DNA of 38,732 bases from Candidatus Staskawiczbacteria bacterium RIFOXYD1_FULL_32_13 (GTDB lineage Bacteria; Patescibacteriota; Minisyncoccia; Minisyncoccales; Staskawiczbacteraceae), in assembly GCA_001820485.1 (NCBI GenBank), contig MHPU01000020.1:11589-50320 (forward strand), written 5' to 3'. The notes beneath the pieces were generated by a model that worked only from the letters and a program-made list of their open reading frames with translations, was not told the origin of the DNA and made no database searches. A program made the position numbers and the translations under genes. Below are positions 2,189 through 38,385 of the stretch, piece after piece (the first letter of the stretch is position 1; the number at the start of each line of letters is the position of its first letter).

Positions 2189-4372
2189 TCATGTTTTAAA
2201 ATCACATTCTTTAGAAGAGCATTTGATAATGCCTTTTTTTGTTTCTACGAGAATTGATTTACATTTAGGACAAAAATCTGATTTACCATCTTTATTAATA
2301 AATGGCTTGTCCCAAACTGCAAAATCACATTTTGGATAAATACTACAACCATAAAATATTTTGCCACGTTTTGATTTTTTAAAAATAATTTGTCCTTCTT
2401 TACATTTTGGACAATCAATATTAAGACTTTTTACTTCTTTAGATTCTTTAGTTTCTAAAGATTCTGTATGTTTACATTCTGGGAAACCAGTACAAGCATA
2501 AAATCTACCAAATCTCCCCAATTTTTCTACCATAGGTTTTGCACACTCAGGGCAAATTTTATCTGTAGCAACATCTGTATTTTCTTTTTTAACTTCTTTA
2601 TATTTTTCTTCTAACTTTTTTGCAAAAGGTATATAAAAATCTTTTAAAGTTTTTTGCCAAGTATCTTTGCCTTCTGCAACTTCATCAAGCTCTTTTTCCA
2701 TTTTAGCTGTAAAATCAACATCTACAATTTCAGGAAAGTTTTCCATTAAAACATTATTTACCAAAACTCCCATTTCAGTTGGAAAAAATCTTTTTTGGTC
2801 ATTTTTATTTATATAGTTTCTAGTTTGTATTGTACTTAAAGTTGGGGCATAAGTTGAGGGCCTACCAATTCCAAATTTTTCAAGAGCTTTAATTAAGCTT
2901 GCTTCATTGAATCTTGGCGGTGGCTCTGTAAAATGCTGACTCGATTCAATTTTTACCAAATCAAGCTTTTCTTTTTCTTGCAAAACAGGAAGATCCGCCT
3001 CGCTAAACTTTGTAGGATAAACTTTGAGAAAACCATCAAACTTTAAAACTTGCCCCGACGCCCGAAAAGTATATTCACCGTCATTGCGAGGAGCTGGCGA
3101 CGAAGCAATCCCAGAGGTTGAGATTGCTTCGCTTCGCTCGCAATGACGAGAAGCAACAATATCCACGGTTGTAGCATCAAATATAGCAGAGCTCATTTGA
3201 CAAGCCACAAATCTTTGCCAAATTAAAGTATAAAGCTTTAATTGCTTTGCATCTATACCTCCCAATGATTCTGGAGTTATGACTGGGCGGGTAGGTCTTA
3301 TAGCTTCATGAGCTTCCTGTGCATTTTCCTTAGCTTTAAATTTTCTAAAATTATAATAATTTTCTCCAAATTTTTCTGTAATAAATTTTTTACTAGCTTC
3401 CAAAGACGTTTCTGAAAGATTTAAAGAATCTGTTCGGTGATAAGTAATATGCCCCTGTTCATAAAGTTTTTGAGCTAATTGCATTGTAAATTTTGCAGAA
3501 AAACCAAATTTATTTGAAGCTGTTTGTTGAAGCGTACTAGTTGTAAATGGAGCAAATGGATTTTTTTTAGTCTCTTTTTTTTCAACTTTTCCTATTATAT
3601 AATCTGAATTTTCTAAATCTTTTAAAATTTCATCTGCTTCTATTTGGTTTTTAATATCTAACTTTTCTATAGGTTTCCCATCTTTTTTTACCAAAGTCGC
3701 CACAAATTTCTCGTTGTCATTCCCGTGCAAACGGGAATCCAGAGTTAATTTTGCATTCTCTGGATACCCGCTTTCGCGAGTATGACACTTACAAAGTTCT
3801 GCTTGAACAGTCCAATATTCATCGGGCTTAAAAGCTTTAATTTCGTTTTCTCTATCTACAACAAGTCTAACTGCTACAGATTGAACTCTGCCTGCTGACA
3901 AACCTCTTGAAATCTTTTTCCACAAAAAAGGCGAAAGCTTATACCCAACTAATCTATCTAAAATTCTTCTTGATTGTTGAGAATTAACCAAAGCAATATC
4001 AATTTTTCTTGGATGTAAAATTGCTTCATTAATTGCATCTTCTGTAATTTCATGAAAAACAATTCTTTTTGGATCTTTTAATTTTAATGCTTCTGCTAAA
4101 TGCCAAGAAATTGCTTCTCCTTCGCGGTCTTCATCAGTAGCTAAAATAGTTTCTTCTGCTTTTGCTGATTCTTTTTTAAGCAAAGTTAAATTCTTTTTAG
4201 CTTTTGTTGGAATAATATATTTTGGCTCAAAATTATTTTCAACATCTACCCCAATCTCAGATTTTGGTAAATCTCTTACATGCCCCATAGAGGCTAAAAC
4301 TTTATAATCTTTACCCAAAAATGATTGAATATTTCTTCCTTTTGCAGGAGACTCAACTATAACTAATTTCAT
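2189..4372 (-). CDS. topA: DNA topoisomerase I with C-terminal Zn ribbons and two repeat-derived in-frame insertions
   Basis: LVIVESPAK, ATDEDREGEAI, SAGRVQS, active-site ITYHRTDS, GIGRPSTY, CxxC ribbons. Confidence 0.97.
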   Translation of the reverse strand: MKLVIVESPAKGRNIQSFLGKDYKVLASMGHVRDLPKSEIGVDVENNFEPKYIIPTKAKKNLTLLKKESAKAEETILATDEDREGEAISWHLAEALKLKDPKRIVFHEITEDAINEAILHPRKIDIALVNSQQSRRILDRLVGYKLSPFLWKKISRGLSAGRVQSVAVRLVVDRENEIKAFKPDEYWTVQAELCKCHTRESGYPENAKLTLDSRLHGNDNEKFVATLVKKDGKPIEKLDIKNQIEADEILKDLENSDYIIGKVEKKETKKNPFAPFTTSTLQQTASNKFGFSAKFTMQLAQKLYEQGHITYHRTDSLNLSETSLEASKKFITEKFGENYYNFRKFKAKENAQEAHEAIRPTRPVITPESLGGIDAKQLKLYTLIWQRFVACQMSSAIFDATTVDIVASRHCERSEAISTSGIASSPAPRNDGEYTFRASGQVLKFDGFLKVYPTKFSEADLPVLQEKEKLDLVKIESSQHFTEPPPRFNEASLIKALEKFGIGRPSTYAPTLSTIQTRNYINKNDQKRFFPTEMGVLVNNVLMENFPEIVDVDFTAKMEKELDEVAEGKDTWQKTLKDFYIPFAKKLEEKYKEVKKENTDVATDKICPECAKPMVEKLGRFGRFYACTGFPECKHTESLETKESKEVKSLNIDCPKCKEGQIIFKKSKRGKIFYGCSIYPKCDFAVWDKPFINKDGKSDFCPKCKSILVETKKGIIKCSSKECDFKT
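3080..3147. repeat. Palindromic element, family B (GTCATTGCGAG...CTCGCAATGAC), inside topA
   Basis: 11-bp terminal inverted repeat plus inner CGAAGCAATC/GATTGCTTCG; translated as RHCERSEAISTSGIASSPAPRND. Confidence 0.9.
3716..3786. repeat. Palindromic element, family A (GTCATTCCC...GGGAATCCAG...CTGGAT...ATGAC), inside topA
   Basis: Same layout as the copies at 9127, 16446 and 38305; translated as CHTRESGYPENAKLTLDSRLHGND. Confidence 0.9.
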
Positions 4373-8287: not shown

Positions 8288-8294
8288 AGTTTTT

Positions 8295-8365
8295 AAAATT
8301 TCAAATTACAAGCACCAAATTACAAACAAATTATTTGTGATTTGTGATTTGTAGTTTGTGATTTT
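8295..8365. repeat. Empty heptamer inverted-repeat element upstream of hppA
   Basis: CAAATTA-type units facing TTTGTGA-type units; 31 bp (8302-8332) identical to 27308-27338. Confidence 0.85.
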
Positions 8366-8407
8366 TTATTTAATTAGTATACCCCAAAAATTATCATAGG
8401 TAAACTC

Positions 8408-9082: not shown

Positions 9083-9126
9083 ACAAAAAAAATCCGCTGG
9101 TTTTTTACCAACGGAATTTTTGCAAT

Positions 9127-9198
9127 GTCATTCCCGCGAAAGCGGGAATCCAGAGAACGTTAATTTAACTCTGGATCCCCGATCAAGTCAGGGATGAC
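9127..9198. repeat. Palindromic element, family A, intergenic (8 nt past the nusA stop)
   Basis: GTCATTCCCGCGAAAGCGGGAATCCAGAG...CTCTGGATCCCCGATCAAGTCAGGGATGAC. Confidence 0.9.
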
Positions 9199-10475: not shown

Positions 10476-10481
10476 TGTACT

Positions 10482-10551
10482 AAAATTCCAAATTCCAAAT
10501 AACAAATTCCAAACTATTCGTTTGTGATTTGGTGCTTGTGATTTGTGATTT
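10482..10551 (-). repeat. Empty heptamer inverted-repeat element in the nusA leader
   Basis: Arms are 29/32 and 28/32 identical to those flanking the four-helix-bundle gene, with only 6 nt between them. Confidence 0.85.
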
Positions 10552-10554
10552 ATT

Positions 10555-10582
10555 TAAAATAAAAGTCCGTGGTCAAACGGAC
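10555..10582 (-). terminator. Putative leader terminator (attenuator) upstream of nusA
   Basis: Minus strand GTCCGT-TTGACC-ACGGAC-TTTTATTTT, between promoter and start. Confidence 0.5.
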
Positions 10583-16181: not shown

Positions 16182-17171
16182 ATGAAAAAATATTTTATTT
16201 TATTAATTTTTGTTATTTTTTGTTTCTTTATAAAAGATACCTTTGCTTTAGAAAAAATAAATATTAATATTGCCACCCTTGAACAATTAGATCAAATAAC
16301 AAGCGTAGGGAAGGTAACAGCACAAAAAATAATAGACTCTCGACCATTTTTATCCCTTAATGACCTATTAAAAGTCAAGGGCATAGGAGAGGCTACTTTA
16401 CAAAAAATAAAAGACCAAGGATTAGCTTGTGTTGATTGCATACCTGTCATTCCCAGCTTGACTGGGAATCCAGTAACAAACATAGAAAACTCGCAAGACA
16501 CTCTGGATTCCCGCTTACGCGGGAATGACACTAGTGATGTGCCTGTTGTTTCCATAATATATCCAAGTGGAATTATTTTTAATGAAATTTTACCAAGCCC
16601 AGAAGGGCCAGACGAACAAAATGAATTTATTGAGCTTTATAATACAAATAATTTTGATGTTGATTTATCAGAATGGAAAATAATGGACAAAGAAGGCACA
16701 AGTACAACTTTTACAATTCTGAAAGACACAAAAATTTTAGCAAATAACTTTTTAATTTTTAAAAGGCCACAAACAAAAATAAGTTTAAACAATACTAGTG
16801 ACACATTAAATCTATTTTTACCAAATGATAAAATTATAGATTCTGTTTCTTTTCCAAAGGCCATAACAAATCAATCTTATAACAAAACAGGTTTTGGATG
16901 GGCGTGGAGCTCTACTATAACCCCTAATTCAAAAAATATAATTTCTCAGCCCACTGCAACTAAAACTAATAATAATTCTACAGATAATTTAAAACTAATA
17001 GATGAAAATTTAGCTTCATTAAATAATTCTCTTGACTCGTCACCAAGCCCCATAAAAAACAATTTTTTAAGCAACAATCCTATAATATTATTTTTAATAG
17101 TTTTAATAGTAGCTATAATTTTAGCAGTTGTTGTTTTTATAATTAAACTCAAACTTTCAAAAAAACAATAA
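16182..17171 (+). CDS. ComEA-like HhH domain + lamin-tail domain + C-terminal TM helix
   Basis: Signal peptide; KININIATLEQLDQITSVG...LLKVKGIGEATL; FNEILPSPEG...EFIELYN. Start set to the ATG at 16182. Confidence 0.85.
   Translation: MKKYFILLIFVIFCFFIKDTFALEKININIATLEQLDQITSVGKVTAQKIIDSRPFLSLNDLLKVKGIGEATLQKIKDQGLACVDCIPVIPSLTGNPVTNIENSQDTLDSRLRGNDTSDVPVVSIIYPSGIIFNEILPSPEGPDEQNEFIELYNTNNFDVDLSEWKIMDKEGTSTTFTILKDTKILANNFLIFKRPQTKISLNNTSDTLNLFLPNDKIIDSVSFPKAITNQSYNKTGFGWAWSSTITPNSKNIISQPTATKTNNNSTDNLKLIDENLASLNNSLDSSPSPIKNNFLSNNPIILFLIVLIVAIILAVVVFIIKLKLSKKQ
16446..16529. repeat. Palindromic element, family A, in the linker of the ComEA-like gene
   Basis: GTCATTCCCAGCTTGACTGGGAATCCAG...CTGGATTCCCGCTTACGCGGGAATGAC; translated as VIPSLTGNP...LDSRLRGND. 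Confidence 0.9.
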
Positions 17172-21811: not shown

Positions 21812-21847
21812 CACTAATAACTTGTTTTATGATATACTTTAAATATG

Positions 21848-21893
21848 AATATACCGCATATTTGCCACGACCGTAGAATTTTTGCGGTATAAA
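21848..21893 (+). repeat. 46-bp direct repeat, copy 1
   Basis: AATATACCGCATATTTGCCACGACCGTAGAATTTTTGCGGTATAAA, identical to 22502-22547. Confidence 0.95.
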
Positions 21894-21928: not shown

Positions 21929-22477
21929 ATGTCTTATTCTACTAATCAAAAAATATTATTCACATTATTGGGTTTGATTGCTACTGGTTTTTGTCACACG
22001 CCAGGGCAACAAAGGAGAGCTTTCCGAGAAATTGGGAAAATTTGGGAGAAAAATACAAACAACAAAACATTAGACAATCAAATAGATAATCTTTATCGCT
22101 CCAAATTAGTAAAACGCAAAATAAACAAAGATGGCACAATCACTTTAACTCTTACAGATAAAGGTAAGATGAAGGCTTTAACCTACAAATTTGAAGAGAT
22201 GAAGCTATCTAAGAAGAAAGACTGGGACGGCAAATGGCACATAGTGTTTTTTGATATTCCAGAAAAACAAAGGGTAGCCAGAGATATATTTAGAGATAAA
22301 ATTAAAAAAATTGGGTTTTATGAATTGCAACATAGTGTATTTGCTTTTCCTTATGAATGTGAGAATGAAATAGAATATATAATCGAAACGTATAAAATCT
22401 CAAAATGGGTAAGGTTTGGTATTTTAGAGAAGATTGACAACGATATTTATTTGAGAAATTTTTTTGGAATTAAATAA
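21929..22477 (+). CDS. PaaX-like protein (winged-helix-like region plus Cas2-like domain)
   Basis: LTLTDKGK wing, then WDGKWHIVFFDIPEKQRVARDIFR...IGFYELQHSVF. Confidence 0.8.
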   Translation: MSYSTNQKILFTLLGLIATGFCHTPGQQRRAFREIGKIWEKNTNNKTLDNQIDNLYRSKLVKRKINKDGTITLTLTDKGKMKALTYKFEEMKLSKKKDWDGKWHIVFFDIPEKQRVARDIFRDKIKKIGFYELQHSVFAFPYECENEIEYIIETYKISKWVRFGILEKIDNDIYLRNFFGIK

Positions 22478-22501
22478 GCAAAAAATAATATCTATAATAT
22501 A

Positions 22502-22547
22502 AATATACCGCATATTTGCCACGACCGTAGAATTTTTGCGGTATAAA
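22502..22547 (+). repeat. 46-bp direct repeat, copy 2
   Basis: Identical to 21848-21893; begins 24 nt after the stop codon. Confidence 0.95.
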
Positions 22548-26656: not shown

Positions 26657-26944
26657 ATGAAAAATATTTTATTAGAATTTAATCTACCAATGTCCATTTT
26701 AAAAGAGGGTAAAAAATTTATTGCCTACACACCGGTGCTAGATTTGTCTACTTCGGGGAATAATTATGAACAAGCTAAAAATCGATTTACTGAAATTGTG
26801 GAAATTTTCTTTGAAGAAATAATCAAAAAAAATACTATAGAAGAAGTCTTAACTGATTTGGGGTGGAAAAAAAATCAAACTAAATGGACCCCACCAATTG
26901 TTATCTCAAACGAATTACAAAACATTAAATTAGCTTGCCGATAA
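26657..26944 (+). CDS. hicB: HicB-like antitoxin (short)
   Basis: KEGKKFIAYTPVLDLSTSGNNYEQAKNRFTE; abuts hicA (TAAATG). Confidence 0.75.
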   Translation: MKNILLEFNLPMSILKEGKKFIAYTPVLDLSTSGNNYEQAKNRFTEIVEIFFEEIIKKNTIEEVLTDLGWKKNQTKWTPPIVISNELQNIKLACR

Positions 26945-27175
26945 ATGCCAAGAATAATCCCTATAAACTGGAAAAGATTTGAAAAATTTGTCCTTTTTGT
27001 GGGATGTGTTTTTGAGAGAGAAAAGGGCGATCACAGAATTTACAGCCGAAAAGATTTACCAAGACCCATTGTTTTCCCAAGAGATAATGAATTACCAATT
27101 TTTATTATAAGGAATAATCTTAGAGTGCTTAAAATTAGCCCAGAAGAATATATTGATATTTTAAAAAGAATATAA
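26945..27175 (+). CDS. hicA: HicA-like mRNA interferase toxin
   Basis: GCVFEREKGDHRIYSR...PIVFP...IIRNNLR. Confidence 0.85.
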   Translation: MPRIIPINWKRFEKFVLFVGCVFEREKGDHRIYSRKDLPRPIVFPRDNELPIFIIRNNLRVLKISPEEYIDILKRI

Positions 27176-27301
27176 AATTTATAAATTTTGATTTATCTAT
27201 GATGCAAGCATTATTGCTTGTTTTTTTGTTGCTATTTTTGGGTTATTCACAGAGCTATGTATATTGATTGTTTTTTAGATGTGGTATAATAACTTAATGT
27301 A

Positions 27302-27752
27302 AAATTACAAATTACAAGCACCAAATTACAAACAAATTCTAATGACTGAAAATAAAAATTCAAAACCATATGATCTTGAAGAACGAACTGCAAAATTTGC
27401 AGAAAACTGCAGAGATTTTATTAAAGGTTTGTCTAAAACAATTTCAAATATAGAATATTCTAAACAACTTATTAGATCCTCTGGCTCACAAGCAGCAAAT
27501 TATATTGAAGCCAATGAAGCACTAAGTAAAAAAGATTTTATTCATAGAATTAGAATTTGTAGAAAAGAAACAAAAGAAAGTTGTTTATGGTTAAGATTAT
27601 CTGAAACTAATAATATTGATATTTCAGAAAAACAAAAACAATATTTACAAAATGAAGCAATAGAAATTAGAAAAATCTTTACATCAATATTAAATAAAAG
27701 TGTTTTGTAATTTATTATATTTTGTGATTTGTTATTTGTAATTTGTAATTTT
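27302..27752 (+). mobile_element. Putative cassette: heptamer arm, four-helix-bundle gene, inverted heptamer arm
   Basis: Arms 27302-27333 and 27721-27752 match the empty elements at 10482-10551 and 8295-8365. Mobility is inferred only. Confidence 0.55.
27342..27710 (+). CDS. Four helix bundle protein (23S rRNA IVP / Avd-like family)
   Basis: YDLEERTAKFA, KQLIRSSGSQAANYIEANEALSKKDFIHRIRICRKETKESCLWL. Confidence 0.92.
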   Translation: MTENKNSKPYDLEERTAKFAENCRDFIKGLSKTISNIEYSKQLIRSSGSQAANYIEANEALSKKDFIHRIRICRKETKESCLWLRLSETNNIDISEKQKQYLQNEAIEIRKIFTSILNKSVL

Positions 27753-27758
27753 CGTTTT

Positions 27759-28166
27759 ATGGAGCAATATCCTATTCCACAATTTATTGAGCAAGAAGGA
27801 AAAATAGCTTTCTTTATTTCTTTTAGACAATTCTTTTACCTTTGCGGTGGAGGAGTAATTTGTTTTATTTTATATTATACAGTTCCATTTTTTATATTTG
27901 CAATTTTATCTTTACTTATTATGGGAGTTGTTGGATCTTTAGCTTTCTTAACAGTAAACGGAATGCCAATAATAAATATTGTTTTAAATTCTATTGGTTT
28001 TTTAACTCATACCAAAAATTATACTTGGCACAAAAAAGAATCAGCTTATCCATTTAAAACTGTAAAAAGAATACAAATAAGAAAAATTGATGAGGGCTCA
28101 AAATTGCAAGCACAAACAAGTAGATTAAAAAAAATACACACTCAAGTAGAAATGAGAACCAAATAA
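27759..28166 (+). CDS. PrgI family protein (VirB3-like)
   Basis: QYPIPQFIEQEGKIAFFISFRQF, two TM helices, VNGMP. Start set to the ATG at 27759. Confidence 0.85.
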   Translation: MEQYPIPQFIEQEGKIAFFISFRQFFYLCGGGVICFILYYTVPFFIFAILSLLIMGVVGSLAFLTVNGMPIINIVLNSIGFLTHTKNYTWHKKESAYPFKTVKRIQIRKIDEGSKLQAQTSRLKKIHTQVEMRTK

Positions 28167-38304: not shown

Positions 38305-38376
38305 GTTATTCCCAACTTGATTGGGAATCCAGGGTTAAATGTGTGAACTCTGGATCCCCGTTTTCACGGGGATGAC
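38305..38376. repeat. Palindromic element, family A, between rnpA and yidC
   Basis: GTTATTCCCAACTTGATTGGGAATCCAG...CTGGATCCCCGTTTTCACGGGGATGAC. Confidence 0.88.
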
Positions 38377-38385
38377 AACTTAATA

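Follow-up and report, generated by a model that had tools for sequence, protein, structure and literature searches.

Intervening sequences (IVSs) of bacterial 23S rRNA that carry an open reading frame (ORF) are the nearest described relatives of the element reported here, a four-helix-bundle (4HB) gene bracketed by inverted heptamer arrays in a 38,732-bp stretch of the Candidatus Staskawiczbacteria bacterium RIFOXYD1_FULL_32_13 genome (contig C20, positions 11589-50320; the whole stretch is called the window below). As described in the available text of PMC4990558, the IVS of Coxiella burnetii lies in helix 45 and has a 28-bp terminal stem, which is cut mid-stem by RNase III in vitro, and tandem heptamers variable in number; Leptospira, Brucella and Xanthomonas are also named there as having ORF-bearing 23S IVSs, and a pentamer is reported for the Xanthomonas four-helix-bundle protein. 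Two further heptamer systems have been described in 5' leaders. In the 5' untranslated region (5'-UTR) of H. influenzae hmw, a heptamer repeat forms a long hairpin and RNase III processing raises expression (PMC12721329, available text). In Beggiatoaceae, Cyanobacteria and Bacteroidetes, TAACTGA heptamer direct repeats stand just 5' of start codons without a Shine-Dalgarno (SD) motif (PMC4679880, available text).

The source genome is a groundwater genome of the Candidate Phyla Radiation type, with 1.03 Mb in 44 contigs and 31.7% G+C. It is designated G000, its contigs are cited with the letter C, and its relatives are designated G001 and onward. In G000, the cassette is placed in the mRNA leader of a protein operon and is accompanied by cargo-less hairpins of the same arm family, by a second cargo family and by a heptamer-armed insert within the 23S rRNA gene.

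The cassette and its empty copies in one genome

The original prediction that a gene lies between two complementary arms was confirmed. The arms (27301-27332 and 27721-27752) are 32 nt each, 88% complementary and separated by 388 nt (Table 1). Both consist of tandem heptamers (AAATTAC and relatives), with a single irregular unit, AAGCACC, in the left arm. A 16-nt arm motif had 13 matches in the window with at most two mismatches, where 0.71 were expected, and none of 100 shuffles reached 13. In the fold of the whole cassette (473 nt), the arms paired together in both the minimum-energy and the centroid structures, with a 3-nt internal loop at AAGCACC; the arm duplex gave -29.0 kcal/mol for the sense strand versus -24.6 kcal/mol for the other. 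The cassette, with its terminal inverted repeats forming a long stem around an ORF, is located between a -10-like box and a prgI-like start, not within a 23S rRNA helix. The 4HB gene was the only ORF between the arms, and no transposase was found within or adjoining the cassette.

Upstream of the left arm, a terminator-like hairpin is followed by a candidate TGnTATAAT box; therefore, the 4HB gene and the PrgI / 221-aa / VirB4-like operon appear to share one transcript, and this transcript appears to begin almost at the stem. The candidate box was not listed by the promoter scan because the nearest -35-like hexamer is spaced 15 nt from it and the scan range was 16-18.

The cargo protein belonged to PF05635 (E=1.9e-11, 44.5 bits, cut-off 33.8) and to TIGR02436, "four helix bundle protein" (E=9.8e-18, 64.4 bits, cut-off 24), and its gene was the single PF05635 gene in G000. 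By sequence similarity, the closest solved structure was 2RLD (an entry with five chains; E=1.1e-10). To our knowledge, this "IVS protein" family has been without an assigned function since the 1990s, and we know of no catalytic motif in it. Alignment of 14 sequences, 39-69% identical to the window protein, showed 20 invariant columns. The conserved helix motif, published as GxxRxxxSxxxNxxE (PMC3936711, available text), was present as RxxxSxxxNxxE (R45, S49, N53, E56); S49, N53 and E56 were invariant, R45 was found in 12 of the 14 rows, and the leading G of the published motif was Q in the window protein.

A fuzzy genome scan for the arm gave 65 raw (46 merged) matches, compared with 0-1 in five shuffled genomes. 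Seven inverted pairs of the AAATYAC type were recovered, and 7/7 ended 5-9 nt before an SD-less start codon. An eighth candidate, C4:21571, was first counted as a hairpin and then dropped, as it consisted of two different direct arrays. Behind the filled pair lies the prgI-like operon, and behind the six empty ones lie nusA, hppA, pnp, rpsT, rpmF and a gene on C43 for a 109-aa protein of unknown function. The left-arm plan unit-unit-AAGCACC-unit-AAAC was common to the cassette and five of the empty hairpins (hppA, nusA, the C43 gene, rpsT and pnp); the sixth, at rpmF, was without AAGCACC. The AAGCACC arm was sense in three (cassette, nusA, rpsT) and antisense in three (hppA, C43, pnp). In the five leaders examined (prgI, hppA, pnp, rpsT and rpmF), a -10 box was located about 8-11 nt 5' of the stem. 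The view that filled and empty hairpins belong to a single sequence family, sited in 5' leaders a few nucleotides before start codons, was supported.

The nusA copy had the same arm order relative to transcription as the cassette, as had been stated before; its left arm was 29/32 and its right arm 28/32 identical, and the loop was 6 nt. Both copies ended 6 nt from the next start (ATG at 27759 for prgI; GTG at 10477-10475 for nusA), and the nusA GTG aligned with the ATG-GAT-ATA start of nusA in relatives. The hppA copy, which had not been included in that statement, also ended 6 nt from the start codon. It is 97% identical to the cassette left arm on the plus strand and is therefore inverted relative to its gene, an H+-pyrophosphatase gene on the minus strand (E=2.8e-262). 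As an observation beside these, a GTCCGT..ACGGAC hairpin followed by a T-run was found in the nusA leader of most of 30 relatives (L022-L051); it is a candidate NusA autoregulatory attenuator.

Contigs from four groundwater DNA read sets that join the arms (e.g., 27335 to 27721) were considered as products of excision and rejected. The depth of contigs from these sets on the window was up to 140 at both arms and about 7 elsewhere. The arm-joining contigs are compatible with an origin from paralogous hairpins without cargo, in this or related organisms (88% likeness), and therefore gave no evidence of excision here.

The sole GxxExxY gene of G000 is enclosed by a second arm family, made of ACRAATAT-type units with a closing GGAGTA...TACTCC clamp. 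This gene (C16, about 3290-3745) matched PF13366 and TIGR04256 (E=8e-30) and lies just 5' of a SpoU methylase gene. The genome has an RNase III gene (rnc), and the rnc leader (C5:5160-5250) contains an empty hairpin whose arms match those of the GxxExxY cassette and which ends 6 nt before the ATG. This arrangement suggests that RNase III may be autoregulated through a cassette-derived stem.

The 23S rRNA gene (C43:19063-23133, minus strand) is 4071 nt long, compared with a model of 2925 positions. It contains an insert of about 520 nt (C43:21055-21572) bracketed by complementary AATTTCT/AGAAATT heptamer arrays, as well as about 630 nt of further insertion. The flanks of the heptamer-armed insert matched model positions 833-1224 and 1198-1679, which places the site at about 1200-1224; we take this to be the helix-45 region, the site of the Coxiella IVS. 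Its cargo, a 67-aa ORF rich in G+C, runs antisense to the rRNA; it matched no family and is accompanied by promoter-like and SD-like signals of its own. Over the whole genome, 72 arrays of period 7 (at least 3.5 copies and 25 nt) were counted, versus 16 each of periods 6 and 8. One small genome thus combines a cassette in an mRNA leader, copies of it without cargo, a second cargo family that has arms of its own and an empty hairpin in the rnc leader, and a 23S insert of the same design.

Variation among relatives and spread beyond the lineage

The 4HB protein was found in 18 of 60 relatives and in 0/3 genomes of the same genus. At 19/19 homologue loci in relatives, the flanks contained an inverted repeat scoring above each of 30 shuffles; 19 of the 21 loci were used, as L001 duplicates L002 and L020 was without a tblastn match. 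The arm unit of these 19 loci varied by genome: AAATTAC, AATATAC, AAATCCT, AAATCCG, AATTTTA, CTAATTT and a 9-mer.

The junctions of the PrgI operon were surveyed in the 21 genomes of the family among 30 operon loci, the nine loci from other families of the order being excluded, and cargo was identified by tblastn or hidden Markov model (HMM). Upstream of prgI, five genomes were filled, with the 4HB gene in G000, G013, G005 and G015 and a GxxExxY gene in G001. Empty hairpins were present in five others and seven were bare; one (G010, no HMM scan) had a probable GxxExxY gene, and three were not assessable. The prgI / 221-aa junction was 4HB-filled in six genomes and had an empty hairpin in two and short single arrays in two. 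The 221-aa / VirB4 junction was GxxExxY-filled in two and had an empty hairpin in five. At the latter junction in G019 (L057) and G012 (L055), GC-richer hairpins were seen that are not heptamer arrays; such hairpins at the same junctions mean that these junctions accept several kinds of palindromic insert. Insert-free prgI leaders had a TATAAT box 6-25 nt before the ATG, that is, they were near-leaderless and SD-less.

At least 10 of 30 genomes had a hairpin in the nusA leader, placed after the conserved terminator-like stem and before the start. The unit of this hairpin was each genome's own, and equalled the arms of the resident 4HB cassette in G008, G017, G018 and G048. The unit was AAATCAC in G000; its closest relatives G001 and G003 shared an ACAGAT/CACAAAT hairpin, and G002 had none. 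Before hppA, a hairpin of heptamer arrays or an array was present in G000, G001, G003 and G033, the unit differing in each; G002 had a GC-rich hairpin and G016 had none. In this leader, some hairpin was present in 4/4 genomes of the genus, every one different in sequence.

The orthologous prgI, nusA and hppA leaders do vary between filled, empty and bare states, as had been expected. The proposal that filled and empty copies are alleles of a spreading cassette held in part: the copies form one family in variable leaders, but they are not alleles of one insertion, because the same junction has different units, and even a different cargo family, in different genomes. At the prgI junction, where G000 has the 4HB gene with AAATTAC arms, its sister species G001 carries a GxxExxY gene within ACAGAT arms.

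Orphan units were scanned in 61 genomes, with three copies of AAATYAC and at most one mismatch. G000 and G033, which are of different genera and are the two with 4HB arms of this kind, gave 22 and 20 matches; 50/61 genomes gave none, and the others were G015 (8), G047 (6), G001 (5), G003 (4), G037 (4) and four more with 1-2. Three copies of AATAYAC gave 23 matches, all in G016, whose own 4HB gene has these arms, and none in 60/61 genomes. ACAGAT arrays numbered 26 in G001, whose GxxExxY cassette has these arms, and 1-5 in five genomes; 55/61 had none. Controls with the reversed pattern were 0 throughout for AAATYAC and ACAGAT; the reversed AATAYAC control was non-zero, with 12 in G005, 5 in G033 and 4 in G017. 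The orphan unit therefore follows the resident cassette, as a strong rule that is not absolute.

A scan of one genome per species confirmed at least 588 relatives of the 4HB protein among the 600 candidate stretches listed. The best 80 of these at least 588 were 50-69% identical to it and came from Patescibacteria, Planctomycetota, Bacteroidota, Chloroflexota, Verrucomicrobiota, Thermodesulfobacteriota, Pseudomonadota, Omnitrophota, Chlamydiota and other phyla. Among these best 80, 77 loci from more than 12 phyla were tested (three with short flanks were left out), and 70/77 had an inverted repeat in the flanks above all 40 shuffles; the best period was 7 in 54 of the 70 bracketed loci. The irregular AAGCAC unit and the AAACAA arm end recurred across phyla in many bracketed loci; therefore, the arms and the gene are inherited together and cross phyla as one unit.

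A quick protein tree of 74 of 78 sequences (four with a stop codon were dropped) showed the phyla intermixed, with 48 of 71 inner branches unresolved. Arm-unit classes, which are crude (39 of 78 classified loci, and 36 of the 74 tree rows, are "mixed"), were weakly clustered on this tree, with 27 changes versus a shuffled mean of 35.2 and 0/200 shuffles as low. Class G alone was not clustered (157/500 shuffles as low). The clustering is compatible with co-inheritance of arm and gene and is mute on recognition.

Table 1. Features of the window that belong to, or border on, the cassette family.
Feature	Position in window	Strand	Basis
Empty hairpin in hppA leader; AAGCACC arm antisense; starts about 8 nt after a minus-strand -10 box	8294..8367	-	
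Empty hairpin in nusA leader; AAGCACC arm sense; between the leader terminator-like hairpin and the GTG start	10481..10554	-	
Conserved terminator-like hairpin in nusA leader (context, outside the element)	10565..10582	-	
Terminator-like hairpin (7-pair stem, then TTTTTTGTTG) closing the upstream hicB/hicA pair	27204..27231	+	
Candidate extended -10 promoter TGnTATAAT, about 10 nt 5' of the left arm	27282..27290	+	by eye
Left arm, heptamer array, plan unit-unit-AAGCACC-unit-AAAC	27301..27333	+	repeat search and reading
Cargo, 4HB gene, 122 aa	27342..27710	+	ORF, profile matches
Right arm, complementary heptamer array, stops 6 nt short of the prgI-like start	27721..27752	+	repeat search, fold
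PrgI-family gene, first in the conserved PrgI / 221-aa / VirB4-like operon, without a Shine-Dalgarno motif	27759..28166	+	

Other features of the window were as follows. The gene pair upstream of the cassette (26657-27175) has a HicA-family second gene (E=2.4e-7); the first, of 95 aa, is in the HicB position and had no Pfam match. A 52-nt direct repeat (21842-21893 and 22496-22547; 98% identical, 654 nt apart) flanks the ORF 21929-22477, which lies upstream of the gene for a 661-aa membrane protein. A second dispersed repeat is a GC-rich palindromic element of about 30-68 nt with the core TCCCGC-GAAA-GCGGGA, found in both orientations with copies 80-97% alike; window copies are at 3713-3746, 9126-9155, 16501-16530 and 38346-38379, and one is just past the nusA stop.

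Explanations for the cassette family

The favoured explanation, to which we give a probability of about 0.5, is a horizontally mobile IVS-type hairpin cassette in an mRNA leader, with a stem that is an RNase III substrate and with cargo-less derivatives. The promoter would fire about 10 nt before the left arm, and pairing of the arms in the transcript would give a stem of about 30 bp that has a small internal loop at its centre. RNase III would then cut the stem, which would free the cargo mRNA and leave the downstream operon with a short A/U-rich, SD-less leader resembling the near-leaderless state of the insert-free relatives. Translation downstream may be affected by this, and the 4HB protein may have some role. 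At the DNA level, arms and cargo would move together between genomes and even phyla. Resident cassettes would spawn hairpin copies that lack cargo and keep the arm plan; these would settle in either orientation in the few non-coding bases before starts, and such empties may act as, or be tolerated as, leader processing sites.

In E. coli, the leaders of rnc, pnp and the nusA operon are classical RNase III-controlled leaders. The IVS-type cassette is favoured because the same design sits in the 23S rRNA of this genome, because the RNase III gene is present with its own leader hairpin, because the nusA, pnp and rnc leaders carry hairpins here, and because two published precedents apply, as far as their available texts go (PMC4990558, PMC12721329). 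It would link rRNA intervening sequences, orphan heptamer hairpins before SD-less starts and two small protein families of unknown function as one kind of element. If the stems are RNase III sites, nusA, pnp, rnc, rpsT and rpmF would be wired through interchangeable, horizontally supplied repeat modules.

Several observations weigh against this explanation. Pairing is poor in some empties: with two mismatches per unit, the nusA hairpin reaches only -17.4 kcal/mol (z=-3.3). The hppA hairpin gave -24.1 kcal/mol on the non-transcribed strand versus -14.8 kcal/mol on the transcribed strand, and therefore no selection for an RNA stem is visible in the empties. The strand asymmetry of wobble pairs was inconsistent, as the cassette prefers the sense strand, hppA the non-transcribed strand and nusA neither; the pattern looks inherited from the source copy. 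Intergenic spacers here measure no more than 4-40 nt, so that the nearness to start codons is in part imposed. The AAATYAC orphans of G015 (8), G047 (6), G001 (5) and G003 (4) are without a detected cognate 4HB gene.

Arrays inside genes also count on this side. About 12 single heptamer arrays lie inside long ORFs of G000, mostly with the A-rich strand sense; they are in frame and encode KSQITNH-like loops (C29:1036-1066, C41:2721-2751, C39:34782-34829, C11:3256-3286 and others). At orthologous positions in sister species, these sites had other units or none. A 28-nt loop segment of TatD was AAATCAC x4 in G000, G001 and G033; G003 had an AAGCTAC-like and G002 an AAACTAC-like version, and G016 lacked the segment. 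A radical-SAM activase loop contained AAATCAC x4 in G000, AAAGTCA x3.5 in G003, AATTTTC x4 in G001 and nothing in G002, and a TrmD-like protein had an expansion of about 13 aa in G000 only. Since single arrays in coding regions can form no hairpin, arrays have an independent life beyond the IVS model. They persist at a site while the unit changes, which the IVS model does not explain.

A tentative explanation for these arrays is that the cargo proteins (4HB and GxxExxY) supply the specificity of an undescribed system by which heptamer arrays are written or converted genome-wide, the unit of a cassette that comes in by horizontal transfer overwriting resident arrays. The overwritten sites would be the leader hairpins at nusA, hppA, prgI, pnp and rnc, and even the arrays in coding loops. 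Such a system would explain both the change of unit at kept orthologous arrays and the tracking of the resident cassette by orphans. It is possible and clearly less likely than the IVS-type cassette; if true, it would give a first function to a very large protein family of unknown role and to rRNA intervening sequences.

About equally doubtful is a regulon read by the protein, in which the 4HB protein would bind heptamer stems (its own and the orphans) and set the translation or stability of the genes behind them, from nusA, hppA and pnp to rpsT, rpmF and the secretion-system operon headed by prgI, so that the cassette would be an autoregulated regulator and not a selfish insert. The match of orphan units to the resident cassette in three unit families fits this, as do the position of the hairpins 5-9 nt before SD-less starts of housekeeping genes, the strong conservation of the protein (20 invariant columns among 14 sequences), and the kept position of the nusA and hppA hairpins under changing units. 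Nevertheless, none of the 3 same-genus genomes has the 4HB gene, yet they retain leader hairpins of other units, and the unrelated cargo GxxExxY (PD-(D/E)XK-type) occupies a bracket of this kind at the same junctions. The occurrence of hairpins in both orientations, three sense and three antisense, argues against recognition of one single-stranded RNA sequence. The 4HB protein is strongly conserved, travels with the arms and is followed by the orphans, yet an unrelated cargo shares the same bracket.

Somewhat less likely still, the leader hairpin may itself be the functional unit, a 5'-terminal stabiliser or standby structure of near-leaderless mRNAs that RNase III does not cut, with genes lodged in its loop. 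The stem, about 8-11 nt after the -10 box in prgI, hppA, pnp, rpsT and rpmF, would stand at the very 5' end of the mRNA, and hairpin position is conserved while sequence turns over, as in the hppA leaders of the genus. From initiation geometry, however, a stable stem of 30 bp, left uncut and unmelted, should keep the 30S subunit from entering at an SD-less start 6 nt away. The co-inheritance of arms and 4HB gene across phyla with a conserved arm plan would be unexpected for random lodging, and the same design occurs inside 23S rRNA.

A DNA-level mobile element is improbable. In that case the arms would be terminal inverted repeats, the empties would be like miniature inverted-repeat transposable elements (MITEs), the cargo protein or a host enzyme would be the recombinase, and the RNA stem would be irrelevant. 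The arm families are genome-specific with differing copy numbers, both orientations are found, a given site differs between sister species, many phyla have close 4HB relatives (50-69% identity), and GxxExxY is in a nuclease-fold superfamily (PF13366). The 4HB family, for its part, has no catalytic motif known to us, and no transposase was found in or beside the cassette. No target-site duplication was seen by eye at the prgI, nusA and hppA copies, where short ones in AT-rich DNA could escape. Hairpin insertions avoid coding sequence and single in-frame arrays occur in genes, which is not transposon-like. Chance, as slippage-prone AT-rich microsatellites beside an ordinary gene in a 31.7% G+C genome with many short tandem repeats, is very improbable in view of the 0-1 arm matches in five shuffled genomes versus 65 raw or 46 merged, the excess of period 7 (72 versus 16 and 16) and the brackets at 19/19 and 70/77 homologue loci.

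Comparison with known systems

MITEs and repetitive extragenic palindromic (REP)-type elements are short dispersed palindromic families. The hairpins described here resemble them as dispersed palindromes in both orientations that are related to a longer coding element. They differ in that a transposase is lacking, no duplication of the target was seen, the arms consist of tandem units and the position beside start codons is fixed. By the marks of transposons and MITEs, a transposase together with a target-site duplication (judged by eye at the three window copies), the cassette does not belong among them.

The E. coli RNase III leaders are comparable in that rnc, pnp and nusA also carry long leader hairpins in G000. 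The G000 stems differ as interchangeable heptamer arrays common to gene cassettes, and their cleavage here is a prediction.

Avd, the accessory protein of diversity-generating retroelements (DGRs), is of a related four-helix-bundle family. The cargo of G005 matched the Avd model weakly (E=2.8e-4, below the cut-off). The window 4HB gene is without an adjoining reverse transcriptase (RT) gene and does not belong with the DGR accessory genes. As a separate observation, G000 has three RT genes (C34:44453-45052, C10:14547-15170 and C41:3303-3902), each with a pair of 118-122-nt direct repeats of 84-85% identity that resemble template and variable repeats; a small Avd-like ORF was seen at the C10 and C41 loci and none at C34. 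These features point to three DGRs in the 1-Mb genome. A DGR link as an explanation of the cassette was rejected, as the RT loci are on other contigs and the Avd-like ORFs are unlike the cassette protein (best BLAST E=0.37).

The TAACTGA repeats share with the present family genome-specific heptamer arrays a few nucleotides from starts without a ribosome-binding site, and a patchy phyletic distribution; they differ in being direct repeats, with 169 direct sets and one indirect set (PMC4679880, available text). The terms "four helix", "S23" and "intervening sequence" did not occur in the main text of PMC4679880, its supplementary tables being outside the scope. The hmw leader has a 5'-UTR heptamer array and a long hairpin, and its RNase III processing controls the downstream gene; it differs in that one arm is the repeat array and the other is G-rich, and the available text gives no cargo gene and no dispersed family (PMC12721329). 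It is described there as a phase-variation device of a single adhesin locus, unlike the window family.

The likeness to the ORF-bearing 23S IVSs goes further: both have terminal inverted repeats with a stem of about 28-32 bp, tandem heptamers in the arm, and an enclosed gene whose product, of about 120 aa, belongs to the same protein family (PMC4990558, available text). They differ in that the window copy lies in a protein operon's 5' leader, at least six cargo-less copies precede other genes, and the rRNA copy of G000 has another cargo, the 67-aa ORF without a family. RNase III excision was shown in vitro for Coxiella (PMC4990558, available text) and would be expected here by analogy.

In the literature searched (subscription journals and supplementary files were outside its scope), no example outside rRNA of a 4HB or GxxExxY gene between inverted heptamer arrays was found, and no account of mRNA-leader cassettes, empty copies or a second cargo family. 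The rRNA IVS case, the heptamers of the Coxiella arm and the heptamers before SD-less starts (PMC4679880, available text) are already known, each in isolation. The window element has the structural features of an ORF-bearing 23S IVS, which is the closest known system, and has them at a location other than the one that defines that system.

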